Assembly (NCBI GenBank): GCA_040954595.2
Contig: CM082593.2
Location: 11,359,477-11,423,476 of the forward strand
Direction: 5' to 3'
Length of the DNA: 64,000 nucleotides
From: Balanoglossus misakiensis
Taxonomy: Eukaryota; Animalia; Hemichordata
Shown piece by piece: positions 39,601-61,300 of the stretch (within the stretch, counting starts at the first letter, position 1; every line of letters begins with the position of its first letter). Under the pieces are notes generated by a model. That model had not been told where the DNA came from. It did no database searches and was given only the letters and a program-made list of their open reading frames with translations. A program made the translations under genes and the position numbers.

Positions 39601-42213
39601 GGCCACTAGCTCTGCATGGCCTGGTTAATCAATGTTGACGCAAAGGTTGACCCCACCAAACACTCGAAATTGATGGGCACGACACTGGCCACTAGCTCTG
39701 GCCTGGCTAATCAATGTTGACGCAAGGGTTGACCCAACCAAACACTCAAAATTGATGGGCACGACACTGGCCACTAGCTCTGGCCTGGCTAATCAATGTT
39801 GACGCAAGGGTTGACCCCACCAAACACTTAAAATTGATGGGCACGACACTGGCCACTAGCTCTGGCCTGGCTACTCAAGGTTGACGCAAGGGTTGACCCC
39901 ACCAAACACTCAAAATTAATACACGCGACACTGGCCACTAAGCTCTGGCCTGGCTAATCAATGTTGACGCAAGGGTTGACACCACCAAACACTCATAATT
40001 GATGGGCACGACACTGGCCACTAGCTCTGGCTGGCTAATCAAGGTTGACGCAAGGGTTGACCCCACCAAACACTCAAAATTGATGGGAACGACACTGGCC
40101 ACTAACCTCTGGCCTGGCTAATCAATGTTGACGCAAAGGTTGACCCCACCAAACACTCAAAATTGATGGGCACGACACTGGCCACTAGCTCTGGCCTGGC
40201 TAATCAATGTTGACGCAAGGGTTGACCCCACCAAACACTCAAAATTGATGGGCACGACACTGGCCACTAGCTCTGGCCTGGCTAATCAATGTTGACGCAA
40301 GGGTTGACCCCACCAAACACTCAAAATTGATGGGCACGACACTGGCCACTAGCTCTGGCCTGGCTAATCAATGTTGACGCAAGGGTTGACCCCACCAAAC
40401 ACTCAAAATTGATGGGCACGACACTGGCCACTAGCTCTGGCCTGGCTAATCAATGTTGACGCAAGGGTTGACCCCACCAAACACTCAAAATTGATGGGCA
40501 CGACACTGGCCACTAGCTCTGGGCTGGCTAATCAATGTTGACGCAAAGGTTGACCCCACCAAACACTCAAAATTAATGGGCACGACACTGGCCACTAGCT
40601 CTGGGCTGGCTAATCAATGTTGACGCAAAGGTTGACCCCACCAAACACTCAAAATTAATGGGCACGACACTGGCCACTAGCTCTGCATGGCCTGGCTAAT
40701 CAATGTTGACGCAAATGTTGACCCCACCAAACACTCAAAATTGATGGGCACGACACTGGCCACTAGCTCTGCATGGCCTGGCTAATCAATGTTGACGCAA
40801 ATGTTGACCCCACCAAACACTCAAAATTGATGGGCACGACACTGGCCACTAGCTCTGCATGGCCTGGTTAATCAATGTTGACGCAAAGGTTGACCCCACC
40901 AAACACTCAAAATTGATGGGCACGACACTGGCCACTAGCTCTGCATGGCCTGGTTAATCAATGTTGACGCAAAGGTTGACTCCACCAAACACTCAAAATT
41001 GATGGGCACGACACTGGCCACTAGCTCTGCATGGCCTGGTTAATCAATGTTGACGCAGAGGTTGACGCCACCAAACACTCAAAATTAATGGGCACGACAC
41101 TGGCCACTAGCTCTGCATGGCCTGGTTAATCAATGTTGACGCAAAGGTCGACGCCACCAAACACTCAAAATTAATGGGCACGACACTGGCCACTAGCTCT
41201 GCATGGCCTGGTTAATCAATGTTGACGCAAAGGTTGACCCCACCAAACACTCAAAATTAATGGGCACGACACTGGCCACTAGCTCTGCATGGCCTGGTTA
41301 ATCAATGTTGACGCAAAGGTTGACCCCACCAAACACTCAAAATTAATGGGCACGACACTGGCCACTAGCTCTGCATGGCCTGGTTAATCAATGTTGACGC
41401 AAAGGTTGACCCCACCAAACACTCAAAATTGATGGGCACGACACTGGCCACTAGCTCTGGCCTGGCTAATCAATGTTGACGCAAGGGTTGACCCAACCAA
41501 ACACTCAAAATTGATGGGCACGACACTGGCCACTAGCTCTGGCCTGGCTAATCAATGTTGACGCAAGGGTTGACCCCACCAAACACTTAAAATTGATGGG
41601 CACGACACTGGCCACTAGCTCTGGGCTGGCTAATCAATGTTGACGCAAAGGTAGACCCCACCAAACACTCAAAATTAATGGGCACGACACTGGCCACTAG
41701 CTCTGGGCTGGCTAATCAATGTTGACGCAAAGGTTGACCCCACCAAACACTCAAAATTAATGGGCACGACACTGGCCACTAGCTCTGGGCTGGCTAATCA
41801 ATGTTGACGCAAAGGTTGACCCCACCAAACACTCAAAATTAATGGGCATGACACAGGCCACTAGCTCTGCCTGGCCTGGCTAATCAATGTTGACGCAAAG
41901 GTTGACCCCACCAAACACTCAAAATTGATGGGCACGACACTGGCCACTAGCTCTGCATGGCCTGGCTAATCAAGGTTGACGCAAAGGTTGACCCCACCAA
42001 ACACTCAAAATTGATGGGCACGACACTGGCCACTTGCTCTGCATGGCCTGGCAAATCAATGTTGACGCAAATGTTGACCCCACCAAACACTCAAAATTGA
42101 TGGGCACGACACTGGCCACTAGCTCTGCATGGCCTGGCTAATCAATGTTGACGCATATGTTGACCCCACCAAACACTCAAAATTGATGGGCACGACACTG
42201 GCCACAAGCTCTG
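30622..42213. repeat. 86-bp satellite array, about 135 copies, with 81-bp variants and higher-order duplications
   Basis: Unit TAGCTCTGCATGGCCTGGTTAATCAATGTTGACGCAAAGGTTGACCCCACCAAACACTCAAAATTGATGGGCACGACACTGGCCAC repeated head to tail with no spacers. Confidence 0.98.
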
Positions 42214-42250
42214 CACTACAGCCCAGTGTGCGCCCTCTTTGTCAGATATT
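42214..42250 (+). repeat. Left bipartite terminal inverted repeat
   Basis: CACTACAGCCCAG-N11-TTTGTCAGATATT. Confidence 0.8.
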
Positions 42251-43247
42251 TCCGTCCCTACTTTCATGGCCTCATGAATAATGTATGAGGCGATTTGTTA
42301 CCGGCAATGGAACGTTCGCAGTTACAACAACATGAAAATGCCGGTAAGTATTACAAGACATTAAACGCATTTATAATGTTTACATCACGTTATCATATTC
42401 TTTAAGGTCTTAAGCTAGTATTGTTATCATTCTCTGATTTCTATTCATTTAATTTCACTGAAAATCTGACCTGGTTTCAAATCGCTATCATTGGTAACTA
42501 TGTAAACAAAGAACATAGCAACCACAACCAAGACAGAAAAACGGCCGAAAAAATCAAATCTTAATGCATTATTCAAAATTTCAAAACCATGAGAGTGTTC
42601 CTAAGACGTTTGTAACTCAGTGTTTTGATTTTCTATCCCCAAAAAGGTCATATGTAGAAATTGATCCAAGCAGAAATTCATCGAGTTTGGCGCGTTCTGC
42701 CTGCGCGTCGCTCTACCATTGATTACAATGGCACAGCTACGCAAATGTCGACTGTCAGGCAAAACATATCGGCAGATTTCTCGAGTTTGAAGCGTGAACC
42801 TATAAAACCAAAACGAGCAGATTGTTCCTTGATATCTATATAACATGTTGATATATCATTTTCGTTCTAAAATGTAAGAGTAAAAATTTTGAACGAGAGA
42901 GTTCTTGCGACAGCGCTTTGAACGCCGCGCGCGTACAGCGTTTAGGCAAAGCAGACGCACACAGAAGGAACTGCGTCCACGCGCAATATACGTAGATTGC
43001 AGCTGATTATACTCAATCAATGTTCCGGTACTTGCAACAGTATGCCAGTACTTCGCAAAATACACAGTCTTTTATATCATCAGGTCTTCTGTAGCGTCAT
43101 TAAATACTGTCTGTTTGGAACTGTTTGACTGAAACAGCTTTCTAGATGACCTTTTATGTTTTCTACAACTTTTCACATTTATTCACATTTAGGAAATGCT
43201 CCATTGTGTAACTCCATCCCAGCTGTGCTCTGGATATAACTCAAATC

Positions 43248-46200
43248 ATGCCTAACAGGAAAAGGACAAACCATTTTGACATCGGGCAGTATGCAGTCCA
43301 ACAAAAAAAAGCCAGAGAAATAGCTAGAGACATACAACTTCAACAGCTGTTAGATGCTGAGTTAGCTGCAAAGACACTGCCAGAAAAGGTTAAGAGCAAG
43401 TCAGAGAATAGATACAAGCTAGGGGCATGGGCAAGAGAGAGAAAGCGTAGACGTGAGGAAGAGGTAGCTCAGTACAGAGAGAAAATGCAGAAATTAGATG
43501 CAAAGAGGAGACTAGTCGACAGGGCCAGTAAGCAACTAAACAGGCTAGCAAAGAAGCAAAGGAGATTAGCTGGAAATAGGGTTAAGCTTAATCAGGAGGT
43601 AAGGTAATTATATAGAAGGAATTTAGCTTCATTTCAGATTTTCACAAGATTTATGATTACAAGCAGAATAGGAAAATATCCACCAAATTAAAGTTTGTAT
43701 ACTTTAAATTATATTACAACTAAGTGAATCATAAAACATTTTGACCTTGCTTTAATGTATATGATATGATTTTATGTGTGTTTGTTTTCTAAATTCTGAA
43801 CTACAGCTTTGAAACACCTCCCTGCTTGACCTTGGCATAACACTGGGGTTTCCATTTATGCATATTGCTTGCTCATGTGACATTGCCTCTCTGTTTGACC
43901 TTGGCATGACACTGGGATTTCCATTCATGTGTATTGCTTGATCATGTGATATTCTCTCTCTGTTTGACCTTGGCATGACACTGGGGTTTCCATTCATGTG
44001 TATTGCTTGCTCATGTGACATGGCCTCCATGTTTGACCTTGGCATGACACGTGGGTTTCCATTTATGTGTATTGCTTGCTCATGTGACATGGCCTCCATG
44101 TTTGACCTTGGCATGACACTGGGGTTTCCATTTATGTGTATTGCTTGCTCATGTGACATGGCCTCCATGTTTGACCTTGGCATGACACTGGGATTTCCAT
44201 TCATGTGTATTGCTTGATCATGTGATATTCTCTCTCTGTTTGACCTTGGCATGACACTGGGGTTTCCATTCATGTGTATTGCTTGCTCATGTGACATGGC
44301 CTCCATGTTTGACCTTGGCATGACACTGGGGTTTCCATTCATGTGTATTGCTTGCTCATGTGACATTGCCTACCTGTTTGACCTTGGCATGACAATGAAA
44401 ATCTGTTTTGTATTCATTTATTAAAGATTGCAGATTTGACATCCCCAAAGAAACAGAAGTGGGTTCATAAAAGCAGCCAGGTTTGTGCTAATAACAGTGA
44501 ATGCCTCACACTGTCCAGAAGTCAGCAACATGAACGCAGAAGTCAGACTCTTCATGCAGCTACAGTCATACACCAGTCATCATCAGGAACAGATATATCT
44601 GCAGGGAGACATGTCAGTGCAAATCCACCAAAATCAGCTCTTGATGGGCTATGGTATACTTTGATCAACAGTGCCACTCCACGTCAAATGGAAAAGTACC
44701 TTCAATCATCAATGAAAATAAATGAATTGGTCATACCAACTTTGATAAAGAAATCAATATCTGAATTTGAGAAAAGTGAAGGTAATTTGACTAGGAGTGT
44801 GCAAGTGTTGTATCAGAATGGGGTTTTGTCAAAACGCAAATACAATGCCTTACGTAATAGTGAGTTGAATCTGTCTAAATTAAAACAACCTAGAAAAGTG
44901 TTGCAATTTCACTTTAGGTGTAACATACCAAGGTTACTTTCCTACAACAAGGTCACTGAATATACACGTGGTTTAGATATAGGAAGTCTTGAACCAATTG
45001 TAACAGATGCAAACAAAGTAGTGGGTATGAAGCGAAATACAGAGCAGATGCTCTTTAAAGTTGCTGACATGTATCTTTGCTTGAGTGAGCACCACCCTAA
45101 CATCCTAAATTGGTTTGGCAAACCGAAGGGCACTTTCCAACTTGCTGTTGGTGCTGATGGGGCTCCTTTTGGAAAATATGGTCAGGCAACTTCCTGGCTT
45201 GTCAGTTTCATCAATGTGGGCCACAGATTAGCAAGCCCTGATGATAATTTCTTGTTGCTAGGGGCTAATCTGAAGGAAGATGACCCAGTCCTGATAGATT
45301 ATGCTAAAAACCTAGCCAAAGAGTTTGAGATCATAGAGGCCAAACAATACACTTTACATGGCCTGAGTGTAAAGTTTAATGTATCTTTGCTGCCATTTGA
45401 TCAAAAGGGATTAGCCTCAGTTTCTGGTGAGTTATCTAATGCTGCTGAGTATTTCAGTTCCTTTGCTAATGTAACAAAAGGTAGCATAGATGAAATAGGG
45501 GCAGATATAGGGCCAGGGAAATTTTGGTCAGAGTGGAGCTATAAGAAAAGAGTAACAGATGCTAATGCAGTGGCAAAATTCAAAGCAAATTTGACAAAGA
45601 AAACAGGTAAGCCTGAAACATCGACAGATCGCTCTAAGGTCACACGTTTCATTGCCTCCAGAAAATCCCGACAGGAATATATTCCACCCCTGGGTAAGTA
45701 TATACAGTGTGCCAAGATAGAACCCCTACATCTAAAAAACAATGCCTGGCAGTATTTCTTTCAAAGGCTTCTTACTGATGCTGTGGCTAAGACTGACCAA
45801 AAAGTCATTGACCATGGTGTGAAATTAGAAAAGCTACCACCAAATTCATGCCTGTACAAATTCCTGCATACACTAAAATATACAGTGAGAGCAGGGAAAC
45901 TATACAATCAAATTGTCAAATATTTTGCTGAGAATAAGGTTAGTACCCATGCCCAATCAGTGAGAGTTCACCGCTTTACAGGGGAAGAATCAAGGAAGTT
46001 GGCATGGTCTTTTATGTCACTGATAGAGTGTTTTAGGGAACCCGGTATCAGTGCACAGGTGAGAGCGAAATTGTCCCTGTATGGTTACATTGGTGTCCTA
46101 CTCAGAGATATAACATCTCTCTGTTCCAGGTTTACCCTACATGAGAGAGATATTGTAGTACTAAGGCAGAAGTGCAAATGGTACTTCAATTTGCATGCGT

Positions 46201-46655
46201 TATTTCTGACCGTAAACAATACTATTTGGCATATAGGATATGTTGTTCCGTGTCATGCATCTCAAATCCACCAGCAGTTCCAAATGGGGCTTGGGCTTAA
46301 TACAATGGAGGGCAGGGAGGCAAAACATCAGCGCCTTCTGGAATACAGCAATAATTCCACCCCTCAAAATAGATGGCCACTAATTTTCAGACATGAGTAT
46401 GTATTGTTGTACTGGTTACGCATGCGAGACCCCGCTTCAGATAACTACAGGGGGGATGGGAGGTCAAATGCCTCCAAAGTAATAAAGTACATCCCAGACA
46501 AATGCTTTGATGACCCATCATACTGTTATTGTGGGAATGTAAAGGAAGAGTTGTCAAATTCCTGTGAAATATGCAGCAGTGAATTTATGTCAGAAATAAA
46601 ACAGTCTGCAATTAGTGGTAAGATCTCAAAAAAACTAAAAAAAATAATGAAATAA
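43248..46655 (+). CDS. RAG1/Transib-like DDE transposase; predicted exons 43248-43598 and 44427-46655 (859 aa)
   Basis: Motifs in RAG1-core order: GADGAPF (cf. SCDGMG, D600), PFDQKGLASVSGE (cf. GYDEKLVREVEG, D708), IEPLHLKNN (cf. IDALHCDIGN), FTGEESRKL (cf. MNGNFARKL), GLGLNTMEGREAKH (cf. SIGAWASEGNESGN, E962). Phase-0 donor GAG|GTAAGG at 43599 and acceptor TAAAG|ATT at 44426 join the frames without a stop. Confidence 0.8.
43826..44393. repeat. 69-bp minisatellite, about 8 copies, inside the predicted transposase intron
   Basis: TTTGACCTTGGCATGACACTGGGGTTTCCATTCATGTGTATTGCTTGCTCATGTGACATGGCCTCCATG repeated. Confidence 0.92.
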
Positions 46656-46946
46656 AATGTGAAAGTTTGAATTTCATGATTCAAAACAATTATTACTGTA
46701 CATGAAATGTACCAGATAGTTTTAGATTTGTATATAACTGTAAGAGAGTTTGTTGTAAATAATCTTTCATTATGAATGTCACAGATTTTGTGCTGCTTGT
46801 ATTGTATTGTTCAAAATATGTATATAGCTTTTTAATCATCCTTTGAAACTAGCTGCTTATGTCAGCTCTGTAGATAACCATGTTTCAAAATAAGTGAATA
46901 AAAACTGAATGATCAATGATTCACCCACAGCGTTCTGTCTGTCGAC

Positions 46947-48251
46947 ATGGTGAGAAGCAAGCGGCAGCCAGCACCCAGGTCCAAGGGACCACAGAGTCAG
47001 AAGTCAACAAGTAACAAAACTGCGGCAGCGACCCAAGAACTAACAACGGATAAAGATCTGCCGGAAACTTCGGAGAAAAAATTAAAGAACGAAGATCTGA
47101 AGGTATATTTCAAAATCTTCAATGAAAAACTACAGGGTTTGAAAGAAATGGACATCATTCACGCCAGTAAGCAGGTGGTTGGTAAAAACGGCATCATCGG
47201 CGTGCAATACATTCCAAGAACAAGACAATGGTTAATTTATGCAAATGACGAGAGGTGTAAAGATAAACTCTTATTGTGCGGCATCGACATTGGAGGAATC
47301 CACATTGTATTGAACCTGTACAGTCCCCCACAGGGTGATAAAACGAGAATTTCAATACACGATGTGCCATTTCACGTGACGAATGCGACGGTTGATGCAT
47401 TTCTCAGTCAGTATTGTGAACAGAAGGAAGCTGTTGTCCGGTGCACGGTCACAGATCCACTGGACGGAGCAAAATACTACAACGGCAATCGGTTCTGTTA
47501 CGTGACATCAGTCAAGAAACCAATCCCAAACTTTGTACAGATGGAGACGGAGACTCAGGACGGTGTGAAAATTTCTTATCCCATTAGAATTTTCTATACC
47601 GGTCAACCAACCGAATGTCGACACTGCAAGGGTGAAGACCACCAAACACGGCACTGCCCGAATCGTCCACCAATGAAATGTTACAACTGCCAACAAAGCG
47701 GCCACAGCGGACGTCTCTGTCCAAAAGGCAAGCAATGCTACAATTGTAAAGGCTTTGGTCACATTGCGGCGAAGTGCCCGAAAACCGTTGAAAACGAAAA
47801 AGCGGTCGACAAGTTTGTGGAAAGTTACTCTAAGCGTGTCAGAGAAGCAGAAAAAATTATCGACATGGCTATTGAAGACATTACGCAGTCAACAACGAAT
47901 CTTGTGACGACAACTGCGGTAGTTCACGCCAATCCAGAGAAAGTGACGACGGAAAAGAAAGATGGCGACGAGCGGGAAAAGAAACCGGTGAAGTCACCAA
48001 CTTCGGAAGACGTTTTCCGGTCGCCGGACAGCTATAGACAGAAAAAGATTGGTATTACGCGGTTCTTCTCAAGACTAGGTTCAAAAAAAGACAAACGTTC
48101 TCCGCCAACTCCGATTGAAAACCTCCAAAAGAAGAGAAGAGAATTTGCCAGCTCCCATTCGACAATCAGCAACATTTCAAGTAATTCGGACTCGCGAGAG
48201 AATCCACAGAGAAGCGATGCGGTTGTAAAGGGAAGACCGAGATCGGCTTAA
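46947..48251 (+). CDS. Tx1 ORF1, gag-like nucleic-acid-binding protein with three CCHC zinc knuckles
   Basis: CRHCKGEDHQTRHC, CYNCQQSGHSGRLC, CYNCKGFGHIAAKC; also NGNRF and IFYTGQP motifs typical of Tx1 ORF1. Confidence 0.9.
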   Translation: MVRSKRQPAPRSKGPQSQKSTSNKTAAATQELTTDKDLPETSEKKLKNEDLKVYFKIFNEKLQGLKEMDIIHASKQVVGKNGIIGVQYIPRTRQWLIYANDERCKDKLLLCGIDIGGIHIVLNLYSPPQGDKTRISIHDVPFHVTNATVDAFLSQYCEQKEAVVRCTVTDPLDGAKYYNGNRFCYVTSVKKPIPNFVQMETETQDGVKISYPIRIFYTGQPTECRHCKGEDHQTRHCPNRPPMKCYNCQQSGHSGRLCPKGKQCYNCKGFGHIAAKCPKTVENEKAVDKFVESYSKRVREAEKIIDMAIEDITQSTTNLVTTTAVVHANPEKVTTEKKDGDEREKKPVKSPTSEDVFRSPDSYRQKKIGITRFFSRLGSKKDKRSPPTPIENLQKKRREFASSHSTISNISSNSDSRENPQRSDAVVKGRPRSA

Positions 48252-48311
48252 ATCGAGTAACTGTGTTTATTTATATATATATATACTTGCTTTTTGTGTG
48301 TGTTTTCATTT

Positions 48312-51300
48312 ATGGCTTGTAAAATAGTTACACTGAACATTAGAGGTATACGAGAAAGAACAAAACGCAACCTTATTTTCAATTGGTGCCGTAGTAAAGG
48401 TTTCCATATTATTTGCTTGCAAGAGACCTATAGTAAAAAGAGTGATGAGAAAATATGGAATAGAGAATGGGGAGGTAACATTTTATATAACCACGGCACA
48501 ATACACAGCTGTGGAGTTGCAATACTTTTTTCAAATAACATCCCTGTTTCGACTAGTGAGGTTCATAAAGACAGCATTGGGAGATTTATCAGTGTAAAAT
48601 TAGATTTAGAGGGATCTTCCCTCCGTCTTTTCAATATTTATGCTCCGAACAGTACTTCTGCCAAATTTTCTTTTTTTGCTAGCCTTTGTAATTTTGTTAA
48701 TCAAGTGATGTTAGATGGCGACCACATTGTAATTTGTGGCGATTTCAATACGATTTTGGATCCAAAGTTAGACAAATTTTCTAGTTGTGACAACGACAAT
48801 GACTGCGTTGATGCCAAGGCAAGGCGTTCTTTAAAAAATATTTTGCAATTGTATGATTTGTGCGACATTTGGCGTAAGTTTCATCCTTATGTTAAGCAAT
48901 ATACCTGGCGGCGGAGAAGGCCTATAACACAAAGCCGTCTAGATTTTTTTCTTGTGTCTAATGGTATTAACAAAAGTACTACTCTGTGTGAAATCATTCC
49001 TGCAAGTTATAGTGATCACATGGCTGTTGTGCTTTCCTTTGTTTATTGTAAGCATGAGAAAGGTCCAGGTTACTGGAAATTCAACAACAGTCTGTTAGAT
49101 GATAATGTTTATTTGAATAAGCTGGTTATTTATATTGAGAATTGTGCAAAAAAGTATAACCATGTGGCTTGTAAACAAACGAAATGGGATTTATACAAGA
49201 AAGCGTTAAAGCAGTTTACGGTTACTTACAGCATTCAGAAAAACTGTCAGCAACGGAGTAAGAAACAAGATCTTGAAGATCTGTTAAAGCAGAGCGAGAA
49301 ATTGTTGTGTAATTTCCCATCAGATGAAAATTATGGGGCATTTCAGAAAACTTACTCTGACCTCAATAGTATTTTAAGTAAAGAGGCAGAGGGTTGTCAA
49401 ATCAGAGCAAGAGCCCGATGGGTGGAAAAGGGGGAAAAAAGCACAAAGTATTTCCTTGGCCTAGAAAAAAGGAACGCCACAAAGAAAAATGTTGTAAAAC
49501 TCGTGACGAAAGAAGGGAAGGTGGTCACTGACCTCGATGGTATTTTGAAGGAAGAAGTCAATTTCTATGTAGAATTGTACAGTAAAAAGCAGACGTCCCT
49601 CAGCTTGGATGATTTCATCAGCAATGCTGGTTTGCCCAATTTAAGTCAGACAGACAGAAATAGTTGTGAAGGATTGATCTCCGAAGAAGAGTGTTGCCGG
49701 GTGTTACGTAAAATGAAAAAGAACAAGTCCCCCGGTTATGACGGTTTTACCATTGAATTTTACTGTGCCTGCTGGCCATTAGTGGGGAATTTGATTATTG
49801 ATTCTTTTAACAGTGCTTTTCAGAATGGCAGTTTGTCAATCTCTCAACAGAGAGGTGTTATCACATTATTACATAAGAAAAACGAACCCGAGCTTTTAAA
49901 AAACTGGAGACCGGTGTCATTATTATGCACTGATTACAAAATTTTGACCCAGGTTTTATCTGACAGAGTGTCAAAAGTTATTTCTAGCATTGTAAATACT
50001 GATCAGGTGGGTTACATCAGAGGGAGATTTGTTGGTGAAACTGTACGTTTAATTGAAGACATGTATCATTACACCGCCAAGCACAATATTCCTGGTGCTG
50101 TTCTGTATGTTGATTTTGAAAAGGCGTTTGATTGCATTAACTGGGAATTCATGCATCAGGCGCTAGAAAGTTTTGGTTTTGGCCCTGAGCTGAGAAGATG
50201 GGCGAAAGTGATTTATTCTGACGTTCAAAGCTGTATAATCAATAATGGGTGGATGTCGAATTTTTTCTCCTTGAAGAGAGGGGTACGCCAAGGATGCCCC
50301 CTTAGTGCGTTGCTTTTTGTCATTTGTGTGGAAGTTTTGGCATGTAAAATTCGTCAGTGTCCTGATATAGAAGGTATACAATTGCCATGTCAAAATTATA
50401 GTAGGAATGTGGTTAAAATTGCACAGATGGCCGATGATACCACTCTATTTCTGAAAGATGAAAAGTCTATTAGAAAAGTTCTTGGTGTATTACAAGATTT
50501 CGAAAAGTTGTCTGGGTTGAAAGTGAACAAAGAGAAAACAGAGGGTGTTTGGCTTGGTAAAAATAGATCATGTAAGAAACATATTATGGGTTTGAAATGG
50601 ACTGATCAACCAGTTAAGGCGCTTGGAGTCTGGTTTGGATATGATAATTTGAAATGCGAGCGGTTAAATTGGGAACCAAAAGTGGCTAAATTTGAGAAAG
50701 TCTTGAATTCATGGGGCAAGAGAGATTTAACGTTTTACGGAAAAGTGCTGATAGTGAATTCGCTTGCATTATCACAATTATCATATCTAGCATCAATGAT
50801 TGATGTACCAGAGCGCGTTATTAAGCAAATCGACAGGTTAATTTACAATTTTATTTCAAAGGGTCTGGGTAAAATGGCCAGAAATGTATTAGCTGGACCA
50901 TTAAACGAAGGAGGTTGTAACATGCCCGTTTTTAAATGGAAAGTGGTTGCATTCAAGTTTATGTGGATTGTGCGTTTAACAAACTGTAAAAATGCATGTT
51001 GGAAGAACTACCCTCTTTATTTATTTGACCCATGTTCGGATTTTTCAATTCTTAAAGATGTACTTTCAAATAGTAGAATTTCAAGAGAACCTTTTGTCTC
51101 AAGATTACCAGTCTTTTATCAACAGGTCTTAAAAGCTTGGAACATTATCCCACCCTGTAAAGATACAGTCAGCACCATTTTGTGGAATTGCAAATATAAT
51201 GTTTTTATTAATCTTAAGCGAAATGTAAATTATATTGAAATTAAGAATAAGAAAGTGGAATTAATGAAATTGAAGACAAAAGATGTGTACAGATTTTTAG

Positions 51301-51800
51301 TAAACCGCATTGCACAGCCAGCCAGCACATTGAGCTGGCAGCACGAGTTTGGGCAAACTACAGATTTAAAAAATGCTTGGTCATTAGCTTACAGAGTAAC
51401 AAAGGAGAACAAATTAAGAGCGTTTCATTGGAAATTTCTGCATAAGAAATGTATAAATAATGTAAAATTGTACCGTTGGAAAATTAGAGAAAATTCCCAT
51501 TGCGTGTTTTGTAATGTAGATGACACAACTCGACATCGCTATTTTGAGTGTACCATCGCCAAAGAAGTATGGCAAATTGTAGATAATATTGGACAAAGGT
51601 TGTATGGCTTGCACAGGCCTTTGAGTTGGCAAAATATTGTATATGGCTTTGAAAAGAACGATAACTTAGATGAGATGAACCTTTTAATTTTGATTGCAAA
51701 ATGGTCTATACACAAGTTTCACTGTATGGAATTACACAAAGCTCGTTTGTATAATCTTGTACAGCATGAACTGAAAATTCGAATGCATAATTTATTGTAG
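48312..51800 (+). CDS. Tx1 ORF2: APE endonuclease, reverse transcriptase and C-terminal zinc finger (1162 aa from ATG 48312)
   Basis: EN motifs TLNIRG, CLQET, GDFN, SRLDFF, SDH; RT motifs KSPGYDG, NWRPVSLL, DFEKAFD, RQGCPLS, MADD; C-terminal CVFC...H...EC. Confidence 0.95.
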   Translation: MACKIVTLNIRGIRERTKRNLIFNWCRSKGFHIICLQETYSKKSDEKIWNREWGGNILYNHGTIHSCGVAILFSNNIPVSTSEVHKDSIGRFISVKLDLEGSSLRLFNIYAPNSTSAKFSFFASLCNFVNQVMLDGDHIVICGDFNTILDPKLDKFSSCDNDNDCVDAKARRSLKNILQLYDLCDIWRKFHPYVKQYTWRRRRPITQSRLDFFLVSNGINKSTTLCEIIPASYSDHMAVVLSFVYCKHEKGPGYWKFNNSLLDDNVYLNKLVIYIENCAKKYNHVACKQTKWDLYKKALKQFTVTYSIQKNCQQRSKKQDLEDLLKQSEKLLCNFPSDENYGAFQKTYSDLNSILSKEAEGCQIRARARWVEKGEKSTKYFLGLEKRNATKKNVVKLVTKEGKVVTDLDGILKEEVNFYVELYSKKQTSLSLDDFISNAGLPNLSQTDRNSCEGLISEEECCRVLRKMKKNKSPGYDGFTIEFYCACWPLVGNLIIDSFNSAFQNGSLSISQQRGVITLLHKKNEPELLKNWRPVSLLCTDYKILTQVLSDRVSKVISSIVNTDQVGYIRGRFVGETVRLIEDMYHYTAKHNIPGAVLYVDFEKAFDCINWEFMHQALESFGFGPELRRWAKVIYSDVQSCIINNGWMSNFFSLKRGVRQGCPLSALLFVICVEVLACKIRQCPDIEGIQLPCQNYSRNVVKIAQMADDTTLFLKDEKSIRKVLGVLQDFEKLSGLKVNKEKTEGVWLGKNRSCKKHIMGLKWTDQPVKALGVWFGYDNLKCERLNWEPKVAKFEKVLNSWGKRDLTFYGKVLIVNSLALSQLSYLASMIDVPERVIKQIDRLIYNFISKGLGKMARNVLAGPLNEGGCNMPVFKWKVVAFKFMWIVRLTNCKNACWKNYPLYLFDPCSDFSILKDVLSNSRISREPFVSRLPVFYQQVLKAWNIIPPCKDTVSTILWNCKYNVFINLKRNVNYIEIKNKKVELMKLKTKDVYRFLVNRIAQPASTLSWQHEFGQTTDLKNAWSLAYRVTKENKLRAFHWKFLHKKCINNVKLYRWKIRENSHCVFCNVDDTTRHRYFECTIAKEVWQIVDNIGQRLYGLHRPLSWQNIVYGFEKNDNLDEMNLLILIAKWSIHKFHCMELHKARLYNLVQHELKIRMHNLL

Positions 51801-52070
51801 GTGTCACATGTTTACATGTACACAGCGTTAGATCATTATGTTGTTGTTGTTGTTGTTGTTGTTCCATTTTTTCTTAAGATATAATAAACAGATGTTAAAA
51901 AAAAAAAAAAAAATGATTCACCCACAGCTATTCAGTTCCTATAAAACATGTTTTTCTTTTTTAATTTTGCTTGGACATGCAACGATGCATGAATTCAAAT
52001 GGACTGACAAAAAGTAATATAGTCAGTTCCAAGAACATGAAAAAATTTCAACAACAGTCTAAATATGATT

Positions 52071-52691
52071 TCACAAATGCTGAGCAACACCATGTTTGTT
52101 CCAGCATCCAAAATGGAAATGTATTGTCACTGTCTCGGCTGATTTCCTGTATCTGACAATCATAGGTTTATCTTCGGTGCAGATAACTTCCACCCGCTTA
52201 CCCTTTACTGTCTTCACCAGAAGTTGTTGGTTTTCATAGTTGACACCTCTACCCAGCACGTAATTCACTTTGTTGATCCAGGTAAATCGAAAGGTAGCAA
52301 TACATGGAGTTTCCCGATCATAAATTCCCATTGAATTACGGGTGGCGCACTTTCGAAATACATCGAAAACTTCCATAGGAACATTCCTACCAAAACTGCA
52401 CTTCCATGGGTTGCGCACTGAGGGTGATGGCTTCATTCTCTGCATAATTGTTGAGCGCCAGTGACGCATCTCCCGTTCGAATACAGGATACACCGGAATC
52501 TGCTGTATCTTCGCAAGCTCCACCATCGTTGCACTACGTTTGCGAACTGTTACATCAACAGCAGCATCGAGATCATCAAAACAATCATGTAGGTTGATCG
52601 AACGGTCGATATTTGTCCTCAATAACTGAAATTTGGCCTCACGCAGCTTACGTTTCACTGTTTTAGAAACATCGATCATGGACGCCGCCAT
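52071..52691 (-). CDS. Uncharacterised 206-aa transposon partner protein, convergent with the transposase
   Basis: Uninterrupted ORF with start context CAAAATGGCG 105 bp inside the right terminus; globular-looking sequence (WKCSFGRNVPMEVF, FHFGCWNKHGVAQH); no kelch or PHD pattern. Confidence 0.7.
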   Translation of the reverse strand: MAASMIDVSKTVKRKLREAKFQLLRTNIDRSINLHDCFDDLDAAVDVTVRKRSATMVELAKIQQIPVYPVFEREMRHWRSTIMQRMKPSPSVRNPWKCSFGRNVPMEVFDVFRKCATRNSMGIYDRETPCIATFRFTWINKVNYVLGRGVNYENQQLLVKTVKGKRVEVICTEDKPMIVRYRKSAETVTIHFHFGCWNKHGVAQHL

Positions 52692-52759
52692 TTTGTATAT
52701 ACGATGCTAGGAACGTGACCCCAGCGTATGACCTCAATTAACATATTTCCGCTTCGCGG

Positions 52760-52796
52760 AATAGCGGACAAATGAACACACTTCTGGGCCGCAGTG
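52760..52796 (-). repeat. Right bipartite terminal inverted repeat
   Basis: Reverse complement CACTGCGGCCCAG-N11-TTTGTCCGCTATT. Confidence 0.8.
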
Positions 52797-55700
52797 CTGC
52801 ATTTTTGGAGTGGTCGAAAGTTTTAACATACAATCAACATGTCATATATGATCAGGGCACCAAATTCGAAGAACAAAGGTTTTTTTATTTTTTTTCTAAA
52901 AATGACATTTTCAAGGAAAATTTGGTAAAACGCAATTTCGTCTGCAGTGAGCCAAATTAGACTGTATTTTGTGGAATTTGTATCGATATATACATACGAA
53001 GAGCATTCTATACTCCATCAGATTTCCGAAAATGTAGAAAACAGGTATTTTTTGTAATTTTCAAAAATTTACCATTTTGACCAAATTGTGGCTAAAATTG
53101 TTATTTTCGTGTTGAATGCCGCCAGTGTCACTGCTTTTAAAAGTCATCAAAACTTTTAACATACAAGCAATTGTTTATATATGATCAGGTCACCGAATTA
53201 AAAAAATAAAGAATGTTTTCCCTAAAAATGACCTTTTTGGTGCAAAAACGAATAAAACGCAATTTTGTATTAAATCAGCTCATTCAGAGTGCATTTTTTA
53301 TAATCAGCACCATTTTTTACATATAATGGAAATTTCATACATCATCAGATATCCAAATATGAAAAAATGATTTAGATTTTAGATGATTGTCCAAAATTAG
53401 CTGATATCTAATAAATGTAGTATTGAACCGTTCCGTCCCCCCCCCCCCCCCCCTACATTATATGCGGTACGCCGATGTCAGCTTACCCGGCAGTACTGCA
53501 GGCCGTGCCCCCAACTAACGTCGGTGTTTGAAACGCCCTGGTTAAATTCGGGCTCTCTCTATAAATTGACAGGCAATAATGCAGTCCTACCCGAACAAAT
53601 GTCGAGTGTTGACCCGCTGTGACTTTCCCTCTTCGGTTTGCCCGACTTAGCCAACGTCTTTGTACTAGAGTGTCGGGTCTTTTGCAGAGCCAGGCCGAAG
53701 GAAATCCGAGTAGATCAACGTGGTCTCTGTACGCGTGTTTCTGCTCTAGAGTGTCGGGTCATTTGCAGAGCCAGGCCTAAGGAATTACGACTTGATCAAC
53801 GTTGCTAACGAACGCTAGTGTCTGTCATGGTGTGCCGGGGTTTTAGTCGAGCCAGGCCGTAGGAGATCTGACTTGATCATCGTGGTCAATGTACGCGTGT
53901 TTCCGCTCTAAAGTGCCGGGGCTTCAGCTAAACCAGGCCGTAGGAAATCCGACGTAATCACCGTTGATAACTTCCGCCAGTCTGTGTCATATAGAGCCGG
54001 TGCACCAGCCGAGTCACGCCGTAGGAAATCTGACTTGATCAACGTGGTCAATGTACGCCTGTTTCTGCTCTAGAGTGCAGGGGCTTCAGCTAAACCAGGC
54101 CGTAGGAAATCCGACGTAATCACCGTTGATAACTTACGCCAGTCTGTGTCATATAGAGCCGGTGCACCAGCCGAGTCACGCCGAAGGAAATGTGAGTAGA
54201 TCATCGTGGTCTCTGTACGCGTGTTTCTGGTCTATAGTGCCAGGGCTTTAGCCAAGCCATGCCGTAGGAAATATGACTTGATCAACGTTGCTTACTAACG
54301 CTAGTGTCTGTCATAGTGTGCCGGGGTTTTAGTCGAGCCAAGCCGTAGGAGATCAGACTTGATCAACGTGCTCTCTGTACGCGTGTTTCTGCTCTAGAGT
54401 GCCGGGGCTTTATCCAAGCCATGCCGTAGAAAATCTGACTTGATCACCGTTGCTAACGTACGCTAGTGTCTGTCATATTGTGATGGAGATTTAGCCGAGC
54501 CAGGCAGTAGAAAAATCGACTTGTTCAACGTTAACAGTGTGCAACTGTTTCTGCTCTAGAGTGCAGGGGCTTCAGCTAAACCAGGCCGTAGGAAATCCGA
54601 CGTAATCACCGTTGATAACTTACGCCAGTCTGTGTCATATAGAGCCGGTGCACCAGCCGAGTCACGCCGTAGGAAATCTGACTTGATCAACGTGGTCAAT
54701 GTACGCCTGTTTCTGCTCTAGAGTGCCGGGGCTTCAGCTGAGCCAGGCCGTAGGAAACCCGACGTGATTACCGTTGTTAACTTACGCCAGTCTGTGTCCT
54801 ATATGTAGTGCCGGGGCATCAGCCGTGCCAGGCCGAAGGAAATGTGAGTAGATCATCGTGGTCTCTGTACGCGTGTTTCTGGTCTATAGTGCCAGGGCTT
54901 TAGCCAAGCCATGCCGTAGGAAATATGACTTGATCAACGTTGCTTACTAACGCTAGTGTCTGTCATAGTGTGCCGGGGTTTTAGTCGAGCCAAGCCGTAG
55001 GAGATCAGACTTGATCAACGTGCTCTCTGTACGCGTGTTTCTGCTCTAGAGTGCCGGGGCTTTATCCAAGCCATGCCGTAGAAAATCTGACTTGATCACC
55101 GTTGCTAACGTACGCTAGTGTCTGTCATATTGTGACGGAGATTTAGCCGAGCCAGGCAGTAGAAAAATCGACTTGTTCAACGTTAACAGTGTGCAACTGT
55201 TTCTGCTCTAGAGTGTCAGGGTTTTAGCCGACTTATGCTGTAGGAAATCTGAGTTGATGAACGGGAATTCAATGTTAGAAAACCCGTGTGGAAGGTATCT
55301 CTACCCGTTTGAAACTAAGAAAAGAATTTATTCTTATTTATTTTGTAAAAAAGACAATTTTTCGAGAGAAAAAAAGTCGAAAATGGTAATTTTGTCTTGG
55401 GTGATTCAAATTATACCGCCTTTTCTGGAATTTGCAGCACTTTTTACAAGAGAACGACACTTCATGCTCCATAACATTTCCGAAAATGAAGAAAAGAGTT
55501 AATTTTTTAGGATTTTTCAAAAATTTACCATTTTTGTCAAAATATGGCCAAAATGGCTATTTTTACTTGAATTCCGTCAATATCTTTGCATTTTTGGAGT
55601 GGTCGAAAGTTTTAACATACAATCAACATGTCATATATGATCAGGGCACCAAATTCGAAGAACAAAGGTTTTTTTTATTTTTTTTTCTAAAAATGACATT

Positions 55701-57841
55701 TTCAAGGAAAATTTGGTAAAACGCAATTTTGTCTGCAGTGAGCCAAATTAGACGGTCTTTTGTGGAATTTGTATCGATATATACATACGAAGAGCATTCT
55801 ATACTCCATCAGATTTCCGAGAATGTAGAAAACAGGTATTTTTGTAATTTTCAAAAATTTACCATTTTGTCCAAATTGTGGCTAAAATTGTTATTTTCGT
55901 GTTGAATGCCGCCAGTGTCACTGCTTTTAAAAGTCATAAAAACTTTTAACATACAAGCAATTGTTTATATATGATCAGGTCACCGAATTAATAAAATAAA
56001 GAATGTTTTGCCTAAAAATGACCTTTTTGGTGCAAAAACGAATAAAACGCAATTTTGTATTAAATCAGCTCATTCAGAGTGCATTTTTTATAATCAGCAC
56101 CATGTTTACATATAATGGAAATTTCATACATCATTAGATATCCAAATATGTAAAAATGATTTAGATTTTAGATGATTGTCCAAAATTAGCTGATATCTAA
56201 TAAATGTAGTATTGAACCGTTCTGTTCCCCCCCCCTACATTATATGCGGTACGCCGATGTCAGCTTACCCGGCAGTACTGCAGGCCGTGCCCCCAACTAA
56301 CGTCGGTGTTTGAAGCGCCCTGGTTAAATTCGGGCTTTCTCTATAAATTGACGGGCAATAATGCAGTCCTACCCGAACAAATGTCGAGTGTTGACCCGCT
56401 GTGACTTTCCCTCTTCGGTTTGCCCGACTTAGCCAACGTCTTTGTACTAGAGTGTCGGGTCTTTTGCAGAGCCAGGCCGAAGGAAATCCGAGTAGATCAA
56501 CGTGGTCTCTGTACGCGTGTTTCTGCTCTAGAGTGTCGGGTCTTTGGAGAGCCAGGCCTAAGGAATTCCGACTTGATCAACGTTGCTAACAAACGCTAGT
56601 GTCTGTCATGGTGTGCCGGGGTTTTAGTCGAGCCAGGCCGTAGGAGATCTGACTTGATCATCGTGGTCAATGTACGCGTGTTTCCGCTCTAAAGTGCCGG
56701 GGCTTCAGCTGAGCCAGGCCGTAGGAAACCCGACGTGATTACCGTTGTTAACTTACGCCAGTCTGTGTCCTATATATAGTGCCGGGGCATCAGCCGTGCC
56801 TGGCCGAAGGAAATGTGAGTAGATCAACGTGGTCTCTGTACGCGTGTTTCTGCTCTAGAGTGCCAGGGCTTTAGCCAAGCCATGCCGTAGGAAATCTGAC
56901 TTGATCAACGTTGCTAACGAACGCTAGTGTCTGTCATAGTGTGCCTGGGTTTTAGTCGAGCCAAGCCGTAGGAGATCAGACTTGATCAACGTGGTCTCTG
57001 TACGCGTGTTCCTGCTCTAGAGTGCCTGGGCTTTATCCAAGCCATGCCGTAGAAAATCTGACTTGATCACCATTCCTAACGTACGCTAGTGTCTGTCATG
57101 TTGTGACGGAGATTTAGCCGAGCCAGGCCGTATAAAAATCGACTTGTTCAAAGTTACCAGTGTGCAACTGTTTCTGCTCTAGAGTGTCAGGGTTTTAGCC
57201 GACTTATGCTGTAGGAAATCTGAGTTGATGAACGGGAATTCAATGTTAGAAAACCCGAGTGGAAAGTATCTCTACCCGTTTGAAACTAAGAAAAGAATTT
57301 ATTCTTATTTATTTTGTAAAAAAGACAATTTTCCGAAAAAAAGTCGAAAATGGTAATTTTGTCTTGGGTGATTCAAATTATACCGCCTTTTCTGGAATTT
57401 GCAGCACTTTTTACAGAGAACGACACTTCATGCTCCGTAATATTTCCGAAAATGAAGAAAAGAGTTAATGTTTTATGATTTTTTAAAAATTTACCATTTT
57501 TGTCAAAATATGGCCAAAATGGCTATTTTTTCTTGAATTCCGTCAATATCTCTGCATTTTTGGAGTGGTCGAAAGTTTTAACATACAATCAACATGTCAT
57601 ATATGATCAGGGCACCAAATTTGAAGAACAAAGGTTTTTTTTTTTTATTTCTAAAAATGACATTTTCAAGGAAAATTTGGTAAAACGCAATTTTGTCTGC
57701 GGTGAGCCATATTAGACTGTCTTTTTTGGAATTTGTATCGATATATACATACGATAAGCATTTTATACTCCATCAGATTTTCGAAAATGTAGAAAACGGG
57801 TATTTTTTCTAATTTTCAAAAATTTACCATTTTGACCAAAT
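52797..57841. repeat. Macro-tandem repeat: units of 2789 bp and 1966 bp plus a truncated third unit
   Basis: GCATTTTTGGAGTGGTCGAAAG at 52799, 55588 and 57554; each unit has an AT-rich part, a poly-C tract and an array of about 81-bp subrepeats. Confidence 0.92.
53666..55250. repeat. About 81-bp diverged subrepeat array, about 20 units (about 10 units at 56447-57230)
   Basis: TAGAGTG(C/T)CGGG...CCAGGCCGTAGGAAATCTGACTTGATCAACGT recurs with 80-82 bp period. Confidence 0.85.
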
Positions 57842-58161
57842 TGTGGGGAAGTATCGTGGCAGTGATCAATACTCCCGGGAGGGGGTTCGAGTATACTGAC
57901 GTCGGAAAAGAAGCGAACGATTCAGTGCTAGGTAAAACACTGGTTTATTACCATCTGAATCCAACAACAAAGTAACACCACAGAGCTCCTTACAAAATGC
58001 TGCCCGAAAGCGCCAAAACTGGGTTATATATAAGTCCCACGAACGCCGGAGCAAACACTCAACAATTACAATAAATCTGCTACAAGTTTGGCGGGAAACA
58101 AAGTCAACTCTGATAGATCCGTCACGTGATCCTTCTGGAGTAAATCTCTCACTTCTCCATA
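57842..58161 (-). repeat. 3' LTR (320 bp) of the BEL/Pao element; PPT at 58162-58170
   Basis: Minus strand GGGGGAGAA then TATGGAGAAGT...ACTTCCCCACA (terminal inverted repeat, TG apparently mutated to TA); TATATAA at about 58025 and AATAAA at about 57944. Confidence 0.8.
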
Positions 58162-58333: not shown

Positions 58334-61300
58334 TCAAATAGAGAGATCCGCTATTCGTACTCGAGCGGCAACTGCAGAGTCTCTGACAGGTCGTCTCGGG
58401 GGTACAACATCCGCCTTCACCGAGGAATCTTCAGAGGCTCCAGCTGTGTCGACTGTTTCAGTATTCGTGTTGGAATCTGCTCCAATACCTGTATTATCTC
58501 CAGACACAATTGACAGCTCCTTGGAGACAACTTCCAATGGGTACAATTTATGGATAGGTCGGTTTGTAGGACCACCTGCGGTGTTCAACTCCGCAGATCG
58601 TACCAGTTTATTATTACCGAAGATCAACCTTGTTACAGTTCCTAAATGCCATTTCGGACGTTTGTCAGTGTCACTGTGTATTATCACGACATCTCCGACC
58701 TTGATGACATTATCACGAGTTCCTTTGGTGGGATGTCGTTCACGTAGGGCAGTCAGATACTCGGACGACCATCTTCGCCAAAATTGATCGTGTAATCTTG
58801 ATAGATGTTCATATCTTTTGTTGATTTCACGATTATCACAGTAAGATGGGTCAATCACCTCTTCGTCGGTGATCTCGATGTACGGCAATGAGGTCAGTGT
58901 CCTGCCATGTAGCAAGTGATTTGGGGTCAATCCAATGTTGTCGTTTATACTAAATGACACGTACGTTAACGGCCTGTCGTTTAAAACGGCTTCAGTTTCA
59001 GTCACAACTGTTGCGAGTTCATCAAAGGTTAGGTAAGCTCGACCGAGAGTTTTCCTAATAGCGTTCTTTGTCAAAGCAATCAGCCTCTCCCAGAAGCCAC
59101 CAAACCAGGGCGCGCGCTTCGGTATAAACGTCCATTGTACACGGTGTGCGGCGAGAAAGTCATTTACTTCTGGCGTATCAAACAGTGTTTTGATTTCATT
59201 GGCAGCCGATAAATAAGTCGATGCGTTGTCTGACAGCATCCTACTCGGCAAAGAACGTCTCGCGGCGAATCTTCTGAACGCGTGCATGAACGTCTGGGTT
59301 GACATATCAGGAACCAGTTCTAGGTGAATGGCACGCGTCACCGCACAGGTGAATAAACAGATATAGGCTTTGGCACGTGTCCCATCTTTGGCCTTGGTAT
59401 AAAGATGACCCGTGAAATCCACGCCTGTTACAGTAAATGCTGGGACAATGTTCACTCGATAACTTGGTAGCGGCGCTTGCACTGGATTCGCGTAAGGTTT
59501 CCCGGTAACTTTGTTGCAAATGACACAACCACGTAAGACACCGCGTACAATAATCTGAATTTTGGGGATCAAATATCTTTGCCTTATCTGTGTCACTGTA
59601 GATTGGACTCCCTGGTGAAGCGTCAGTTCGTGTGATTTCCGTATTATCAAATTTGTCAATTTATGATGCGAGGGTATCAAGGCGGGAAATCTTGTGACGA
59701 AATCGATCGGCGCGTTATGGATTCTACTCCCACAGCGAAGTACGTCTTCTTCGTCAACAAATAAGTTCAGTTGTCGAACAATGGGCGCACATTTACTCAA
59801 GTTCAATTTCACAGACTGGATTTCGGCGTCATAGAACTGCCGTTGAATATGTTTAACCCACATATTTTCCGCTCGGTGCAGCTCATCAGGGGTAATTCTC
59901 CCGTGTTTCACCTCGGTAGATTTTTTCATCCGTGCGATGAATCTGAGGACATAACTTGTCACTCGTAATAGCCTATCCAAGTTGTTGAATCTGGAAATGT
60001 CAACAACGTGTTGAATTCCGTAGTCATTGGGACTGGTAATTTCCAGATTTTCGCGATCTGTACATCGTCTGGCTTTGGGGGGAGCGAGTATTTCTGCCTT
60101 CTCGGTAGACTGATCGTTGATTCCGTTGCCGAAACGCGGCGGCAATCTGTCCGTCTCATCTGGTTCGATTGCGGTATGCATCACATTAACATCAAACGCT
60201 GGGCAACTAGGCCAATCGCTTGTCTTTAGCCATGTTGGTCCATTACGCCATAGTTCAGAGCGTTCCATCATTTCGTAGGTTACCCCTCTGGTTAAAAGAT
60301 CAGCTGGGTTGTGTTCTGATGGGCAGTATTTCTTTGTGGACTGAAATTCGCGAATTTCATCTACTCGATTCTTCACAAACACCGGAAGTCTCTTCTCACT
60401 GTTCAGCCAGTGAAGGACAATTTGGCTGTCACTCCATAAATAACAACGAACTATGTCATATTTGGAGGACAGGGCTTCTTTAGCGTACTTGCTGAGACGT
60501 GTGGCTATTAACGCAGCCATCAATTCCAGTCGCGGGAGTGTAGTTTCAGCCACTGGTGCGGTTCTAGTCTTCGCCATCACAAACGACGTTTGCTGTCCTC
60601 TTTTCAAATACACTACTGCCCCATACGCTCTCTGGCTTGCGTCTGCAAAGGCGTGTAGCTCGCATTCATTGTCGCCTTCAAGTTCATCAAAATATTGTCG
60701 TTCGATCTTCGTGTTTCGCGAGTCTTTGAGATCTTCTGCGATGTGCATCCATTGAGTGTAGAGATCTGCGTTGATAGGTTCATCCCAGTCTAATTCCAGT
60801 TTCCATAGTAACTGAATGAACAATTTGGCTTTGATCATTACAGGGGCGAGAAATCCAAACGGATCAAATAGCATCGCCACATAGCTGACAATGTCACGTT
60901 TGGTCACGAGTTCGGCACGCGACGACATATTAACCACTTTGGAGTAAGTCAATTCGTCAGATTTTGTTGACCACTGCATTCCCAAAACGGATACATCTTC
61001 GGTGGGTTCGTTCAGATTGTCACATGTAGCGAGTTCGTTTATTTGTTGACAGTTGGAAGACCATGCTCTGAGTTTGAATCCGCCTGATGTCATCAACTCA
61101 TTGGCTTCATGGTAGTATTTCATGGAGTTTTCTGCAGTATTTTTTTTTATTTATTTATTACACAGATCAACGGGCAAACCCACTTACAGATCTGGGAAAC
61201 AATAAAAACAATTAAGTCACAAAACAAAAATTAACTGAAAAACAAGACACCAAAAAAGTAACACATGTCACGTAAAATATAAATACAAATCAAGGAACAG

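Follow-up and report, generated by a model that had tools for sequence, protein, structure and literature searches.

A 206-aa ORF and a transposase gene in the hemichordate Balanoglossus misakiensis together make up one 10.6-kb DNA transposon, which was later split by the insertion of a LINE between the two genes. The ORF is almost certainly a genuine partner gene encoded by the element. Whether its product assists the element's own transposase, a predicted RAG1/Transib-fold enzyme, as a cofactor we judge to be evenly balanced, the role being argued by analogy with RAG2. The element would represent a two-gene lineage of predicted RAG1-fold transposons that has apparently not been described previously. 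The features of the element and its surroundings in the window (the whole 64,000-nucleotide stretch of DNA that was analyzed) are listed in Table 1.

Table 1. Positions of the transposon, its genes, and neighboring repeats in the window
Feature	Position	Strand	Remarks
Left terminal inverted repeat (TIR) CACTACAGCCCAG	42214..42226	+	Pattern search of the window
Right terminal inverted repeat (TIR) CACTGCGGCCCAG	52784..52796	-	11/13 identical to the left TIR
Target duplication CTG	left copy 42211..42213, right copy 52797-52799	+	3 bp
Transposase coding exon 1 (predicted)	43248..43598	+	GT..AG and frame
Phase-0 GT..AG intron (predicted)	43599..44426	+	Contains a 69-bp minisatellite, 43817-44394
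Main transposase exon	44427..46655	+	Holds a 739-codon ORF, 44436-46655
Full-length LINE, presumably L1/Tx1-like	46915..51928	+	Later insertion between the 3' ends of both genes
LINE ORF1	46947-48251		Zinc knuckle
LINE ORF2	48294-51800		Endonuclease and RT
Partner gene	52071..52691	-	One exon, 206 aa, basic, pI 9.9
BEL/Pao retrotransposon pol fragment	58334-61123	-	Ordinary repeat
RT fragment	61522-62460	-	Ordinary repeat

The terminus pattern matched the whole window twice, at the element's own two ends; because the pattern was derived from these same ends, the shuffle expectation (mean of 0.22) is no independent test. The predicted splice product of the transposase gene is a stop-free protein of 859 aa, and its predicted first exon encodes a basic segment with two F-x-[IL]-G-x-[YW]-A-like motifs followed by a helical stretch. 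Short ORFs resembling this exon are also found upstream in related elements. The LINE (∼5 kb), which we take to be of the L1/Tx1 type from its domain layout, retains both ORFs intact and a poly(A), with a 17-bp duplication whose copies lie at 46915-46931 and 51912-51928. Poly(A) signals flank it, AATAAA at 46897 (+) for the transposase side and ATTAAA at 51960 (-) for the partner side. With the LINE located between these signals, each gene could still terminate. In a contig of run X1, position 46928 is followed immediately by 51926, and a LINE-free form of the element therefore exists. Runs X1 to X3 represent one sample from one study, which may be the source of the window itself, and their contigs share the flanks of the window at both ends, and the preferred reading is therefore that they cover this one locus and not further copies.

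Different repeats meet at the element, a satellite of 82/86 bp that extends over 11.6 kb on the left (30622-42213) and a repeat with a unit of 2 to 2.8 kb on the right (52797-57850). Both hold CTCTGCAT at a matching spot, and the junction may therefore stem from element-linked recombination or deletion. A contig of run X2 joins 41957 to 52799 without the element and reads ..CTCTG CAG CGG CATTTT; the CAG in this joint (one contig, 27 letters on its short side, within repeats) could conceivably be an inverted target site duplication (TSD), as a hairpin-type excision footprint leaves. A further complete element, with both genes and an ATA duplication, was found inside a 294-bp tandem array (L081:6349-14890), so that insertion into satellite DNA is seen twice. 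This locus was the only one recovered by the prokaryote genome search, on a contig assigned to an Anaerolineae MAG; given the tandem array, the contig is likely animal DNA in a MAG bin.

The preliminary description had reported an intact ORF 105 bp from the right terminus, and this was borne out: the ORF translates without stops into 206 aa ending in FHFGCWNKHGVAQHL, and its ATG lies exactly 105 nt inward of the right terminus at 52796, in the context CAAAATGGCGGC. Compared with the window, the ORF in the X1 to X3 contigs differs at four sites (two synonymous and two nonsynonymous, with no indel), too few for a selection test. The predicted structure (pLDDT, 93.9; pTM, 0.83) contains six helices and seven strands, arranged as a two-helix hairpin (residues 2 to 53), two further helices, and a seven-strand alpha/beta domain (residues 97 to 197). 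The helical N-terminal half and beta-rich C-terminal half proposed earlier from the sequence thus recur in the model, where the helices span residues 2 to 85 and the seven strands residues 97 to 197. The protein had also been judged too short for a six-bladed kelch and devoid of a recognizable PHD; in agreement, the model has no propeller, none of the 106 family members matches a kelch Pfam family, and the conserved columns of their alignment contain no cysteine.

As modeled, the partner has no fold match above background, and its fold gives no clue to function. Foldseek returned 0 matches in the PDB at an E value of ≤1e-3, and the matches listed by a wide VIA fold search were taken up by the helical hairpin (Z ≤ 7.2), with the C-terminal domain barely covered. 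For that domain, a second fold search gave Z scores of 3.7 to 5.1 (e.g., to the RnlA N-terminal domain, YwmB, and AcrID1), in a range (Z under 8) that counts as background by the tool's own note. The single match in a viral fold library was rejected (TM, 0.21; rmsd, 16). The C-terminal domain was modeled within the full-length partner only and may, for that reason, still have a known fold.

The partner is not the orphan that it had been called. A phmmer search of 1.84 billion representatives gave 122 matches at an E value of ≤1e-3, the best at 38% identity, and a word-index search yielded 46 candidates, none at an E value of ≤1e-3. The alignment of the query with 105 of the 122 homologues (A2; 106 members) shows conservation of W78, R85, P95-W96 (two adjacent residues), R102, and F109 and a C-terminal motif, [YF]G-x-W-N-x-x-G-x-P-Q-H. 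Two of the 122 matches, P0142 and P0199, were excluded from A2 as spurious repeat proteins. The family is basic (median pI of 9.3 in 58 full-length rows), and no acidic residue is conserved at 75% or more in A2, which argues against a metal-dependent nuclease. On sequence grounds, the family is already catalogued as Pfam PF26709; the label PF26709.1 was precomputed for 9 of the 10 proteins retrieved by a profile search. The Pfam search with the partner gave nothing above the curated cutoff, PDB sequence searches gave nothing below an E value of 0.03, and among PHROGs one family was matched, by 1 of the 106 members. ESM Atlas held nothing usable for the partner (P0001) and only matches under 0.9 for P0124, and viral contigs contained no relative of the partner (1 pattern match) or of the transposase (129 pattern matches). 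In Tubulanus polymorphus, a partner domain forms the C terminus of a Tau/MAP-repeat host gene model (P0210; XP_074652023.1), of which three isoforms fall in the P0210 cluster; judged from sequence, this fusion is possibly an exon capture or possibly an annotation artefact.

The structural model of the transposase (pLDDT, 90.2) was closest to RAG1 (6dbi_C; Z of 21.9, rmsd of 3.8, 462 aligned residues, 10% identity), followed by amphioxus BbRAG1L (Z of 19.7), HzTransib (14.4), and the P element (12.3), with the next match at 7.1; as the listed matches include no solved CACTA or Chapaev transposase, the proximity to RAG1 may reflect solved structures only. Foldseek likewise returned a RAG1-type match (E value of 3e-12), and a RAG1/Transib fold is predicted for the transposase. 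The D-D-E triad (D241, D322, and E628 in P0002 numbering) is present in 88/88 transposases, as are LH431-432 and H607, and the first His of the H(4)H pair is present in 34/88. In none of the 88 is there a CxxC in the 40 columns after D322, where the C(2)C motif was sought; the segment reads [YF][FP]S[SPT]F. At residues 697 to 713 (P0002), a C-terminal CxC..CxxC is kept in 83 to 86 of the 88 transposases and is likely a zinc site, of another pattern, located where RAG1L has its C-terminal tail. Within the N-terminal 300 aa of the spliced protein, as predicted from its exons, there are three Cys and no CxxC. The CACTA Pfam families (TnpD/TnpA) were not matched by any of 23 transposases or 106 partners, and the element may be a distant member of EnSpm/CACTA.

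All 14 elements for which both ends were available have CAC..GTG termini, and related loci mostly begin CACGCYGGG. A 3-bp TSD was identified in 7 of the 14, namely, in 6 of the 13 elements in the TSD census and in L081, where it was read from the ends of the element. The census of 13 gave one 2-bp match and no 4- or 5-bp match (0/13). Elements without a TSD match are on short-read contigs, several of which share the flank of one end. The duplications observed were CTG, TTA, TAG, ATT, AAT, AGC, and ATA, one of which (1/7) fits TWA.

Homologues of the transposase numbered 191 at an E value of ≤1e-3 among the 7992 candidates scored, and the named ones come from Ptychodera flava (62%), sea anemones, corals, and the nemertean Lineus. 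In a metagenome scan, 257 transposase loci were confirmed, the best 80 of which, with host DNA inferred to be animal and mostly coral, were used for a linkage census. The preliminary description had predicted homologues convergent to such transposases, and among these best 80 of 257 loci, 31 of the 35 with at least 1.4 kb downstream of the transposase indeed carry a convergent partner homologue, with none on the same strand (0/35). No partner lies upstream in the 32 loci of the same 80 that have at least 1.4 kb on that side (0/32). When the 35 loci with sufficient downstream DNA were grouped into families at 75% transposase identity, the partner was present in 15/18, and it is also present in L081. 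The remaining four loci (L014, L026, L054, and L072) show no partner within 1.5 to 4.6 kb downstream and no right end either; they may be elements with a transposase alone, and in the family of L072 the other two loci do carry the partner. The intergenic gap between the two genes ranges from 242 to 2928 nt (33 loci).

An in-frame ATGGCG start is located 77 to 131 nt inward of the right TIR in 12 of the 13 elements with a right end. ATGGCG-like starts are common among animal genes. Set against the general YY1/TISU consensus, the start context of the partner is similar to the YY1/TISU element, which goes with very short 5' untranslated regions, and a YY1-like motif overlaps the start. The TISU context has been described for constitutively expressed genes (PMC2518114). 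Short partner-like fragments were observed near the left ends of several elements (L016:1168-1263, L017, L018, L022:435-728, L065:1908-2012, L067, and L081:6934-7275), perhaps as relics of end duplication.

The dN/dS ratios, proposed earlier as a check, indicate purifying selection on the partner (0.25 to 0.60 in 11 unsaturated pairs from two families); in the same pairs, those of the transposase are 0.11 to 0.31. Synonymous excess in the partner was detected in three non-overlapping pairs (P values of 3e-5, 1e-6, and 2e-3, which assume no transition bias and are based on two families). The partner evolves faster than the transposase, with a mean identity of 25% versus 41%. Across 16 family representatives, partner and transposase distances are correlated (Mantel rho of 0.58; P value of 1e-4), and the two trees have five clades in common, with the element of the window placed differently in each. 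Partner and transposase have long been inherited together; such co-divergence is expected from linkage alone and hence is no proof of physical contact. Fungal TET/JBP cargo genes of one type cluster by host, not by element (PMC12730594). The preliminary description had named two outcomes that would speak against the partner, homologues unlinked to this transposase and an ORF not conserved among element copies; neither was found.

The preliminary description had proposed an accessory subunit, a regulator, or a targeting factor for the transposase, and the protein may be any of these. The cofactor reading is based on the long-kept RAG2-like position, the predicted RAG1-fold enzyme, the lack of a conserved acidic catalytic set in the partner, and the absence of any sign of swapping between families. 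Under this reading, the small basic partner would use its conserved C-terminal sheet and tail to join the transposase on the element ends, and during cut-and-paste transposition it would assist in holding or bending DNA of the flank or the target, doing for its transposase what RAG2 does for RAG1 but arrived at independently with a different fold. RAG2 touches the ZnC2 region of RAG1, and, speculatively, the partner might dock near the region of the transposase that lost the C(2)C zinc site. The propeller of RAG2 touches both RAG1 and the DNA next to the heptamer (PMC8355894), and the same role for the partner is suggested by analogy only. A broader proposal is possible, and we advance it tentatively: a separate RAG1-fold lineage of superfamily rank in cnidarians, nemerteans, and hemichordates would have lost the RAG1/CACTA zinc site and independently recruited, in the position of RAG2, a non-kelch, obligate second subunit with an undescribed fold, so that the RAG1+RAG2 design would have been invented twice.

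Several other roles can be envisioned for the partner. It might be a stand-alone DNA-binding regulator of ends or promoters that sets the expression or recruitment of the transposase without forming a stable subunit, for which CACTA TnpA and the Harbinger Myb protein are models. A basic protein with conserved W78, R85, W96, and R102 would suit such a role, co-divergence with the transposase fits it equally well, and the C-terminal domain is weakly similar (Z of 4.6 to 4.7) to the sheet-and-helix folds of the RnlA N-terminal repeat domain and YwmB, which we assume to be TBP-like. These fold similarities, with Z under 8, are nevertheless background, no known DNA-binding family was matched by more than 1 of the 106 partner members, and we consider a regulator somewhat unlikely. 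Counter-defense is another conceivable function, modeled on VANC of VANDAL elements or on TET/JBP carried by transposons, in which the partner would act against silencing at the level of host chromatin or small-RNA machinery. Its faster evolution relative to the transposase would agree with this, as would a start context like that of constitutively expressed genes (TISU; PMC2518114); yet no enzyme or chromatin-reader family was matched among the partner members, and the partner tracks its own transposase lineage without swapping (16 representatives), which makes an anti-silencing function unlikely in our estimate.

Two further alternatives conflict with the data. That the partner is of no use to the element, being either a host gene carried along or an ORF that arose by chance, could be argued from the nemertean host gene model in which the domain is fused to a Tau/MAP-like protein, but position, strand, start context, and frame have been kept although the transposases average 41% identity, and we regard this as highly improbable. 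A shrunken RAG2L in a degenerate RAGL transposon would account for the identical convergent position and for RAG1 being the closest of the solved structures. The model, however, contradicts it: 206 aa with six helices and seven strands cannot build a six-bladed propeller, there is no conserved cysteine for a PHD, the TSD measures 3 bp instead of 5, and identity of the transposase to RAG1 is just 10 to 12%. This derivation is therefore scarcely tenable.

DNA transposons with two genes are no rarity. Research on the origin of adaptive immunity has yet to explain how a Transib-type transposase with a single gene became dependent on RAG2, and if the cofactor reading is true, a second lineage with the same predicted fold, a convergent layout, and an unrelated partner would offer a natural control on whether such enzymes recruit a cofactor repeatedly and on the docking site. 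The family also breaks the C(2)C rule that defines the CMC/Transib clade. Neither protein matches the Pfam copy searched, which was without PF26709, and annotation pipelines are therefore likely to miss such elements. The two genes remain intact, and neither is too large for a standard excision assay.

Among known systems, RAGL/ProtoRAG/TransibSU elements likewise combine a DDE transposase of the fold predicted here with a convergent second gene inside TIRs starting with CAC. The preliminary description had placed the partner in the position that RAG2L occupies, which holds for the position and fails for the ancestry: unlike RAGL, the element has a partner without kelch or PHD, a TSD of 3 bp rather than 5, and a transposase without C(2)C, without N-terminal zinc fingers in its predicted form, and with 10 to 12% identity to RAG1. 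The C-terminal Cys/His PHD finger of RAG2/RAG2L proteins is absent in amphioxus as well. The hosts of RAGL include cnidarians, nemerteans, and hemichordates, as here (PMC7204232 and PMC4411706), and YY1 acts on ProtoRAG ends (PMC7481187).

Chapaev3 elements have in common with this family CAC..GTG ends, a 3-bp TSD, the LH motif, animal hosts, and sometimes a two-exon transposase (PMC4079192), the last being predicted here. The predicted transposase may lack the Chapa zinc finger, and the accessible part of the same source mentions no second gene for Chapaev3 (PMC4079192). Chapaev3 further has C(2)C, H(4)H, and TWA duplications, in contrast to 0/88, 34/88 (first His), and 1/7 here. TnpA of EnSpm/CACTA elements is normally encoded on the same strand as the transposase, whereas the partner here is a separate, convergent gene. 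EnSpm does encode a second, regulatory protein (PMC1131882), and the element fits the EnSpm rule of CAC..GTG ends with 3-bp TSDs (PMC12730594). Canonical Transib elements have a single gene, a 5-bp TSD, and C(2)C; some Transib families make 3-bp TSDs (10.64898/2026.08.26.747230), and their TIRs start with G.

The literature searched contains no description of this family. Repbase Reports, figures, bioRxiv supplements, and most subscription journals lay outside it, and Repbase in particular may already list these elements under another label, e.g., EnSpm or unclassified. C(2)C and H(3-4)H are stated to be common to every lineage of the CMCT clade (PMC12730594), and the transposase family described here, without C(2)C, differs in this from the whole clade, including Plavaka, ESTA, and Lanisha. 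Each named family has one defining feature that the element does not show, and it was therefore filed under none. With the CMCT clade (EnSpm, Mirage, Chapaev, Transib, and RAG1) it shares CA..TG termini and a TSD in the range of 2 to 5 bp, and the element, as far as its sequence and the structural models indicate, would resemble a CMCT/RAG1-type cut-and-paste transposon in how it works.
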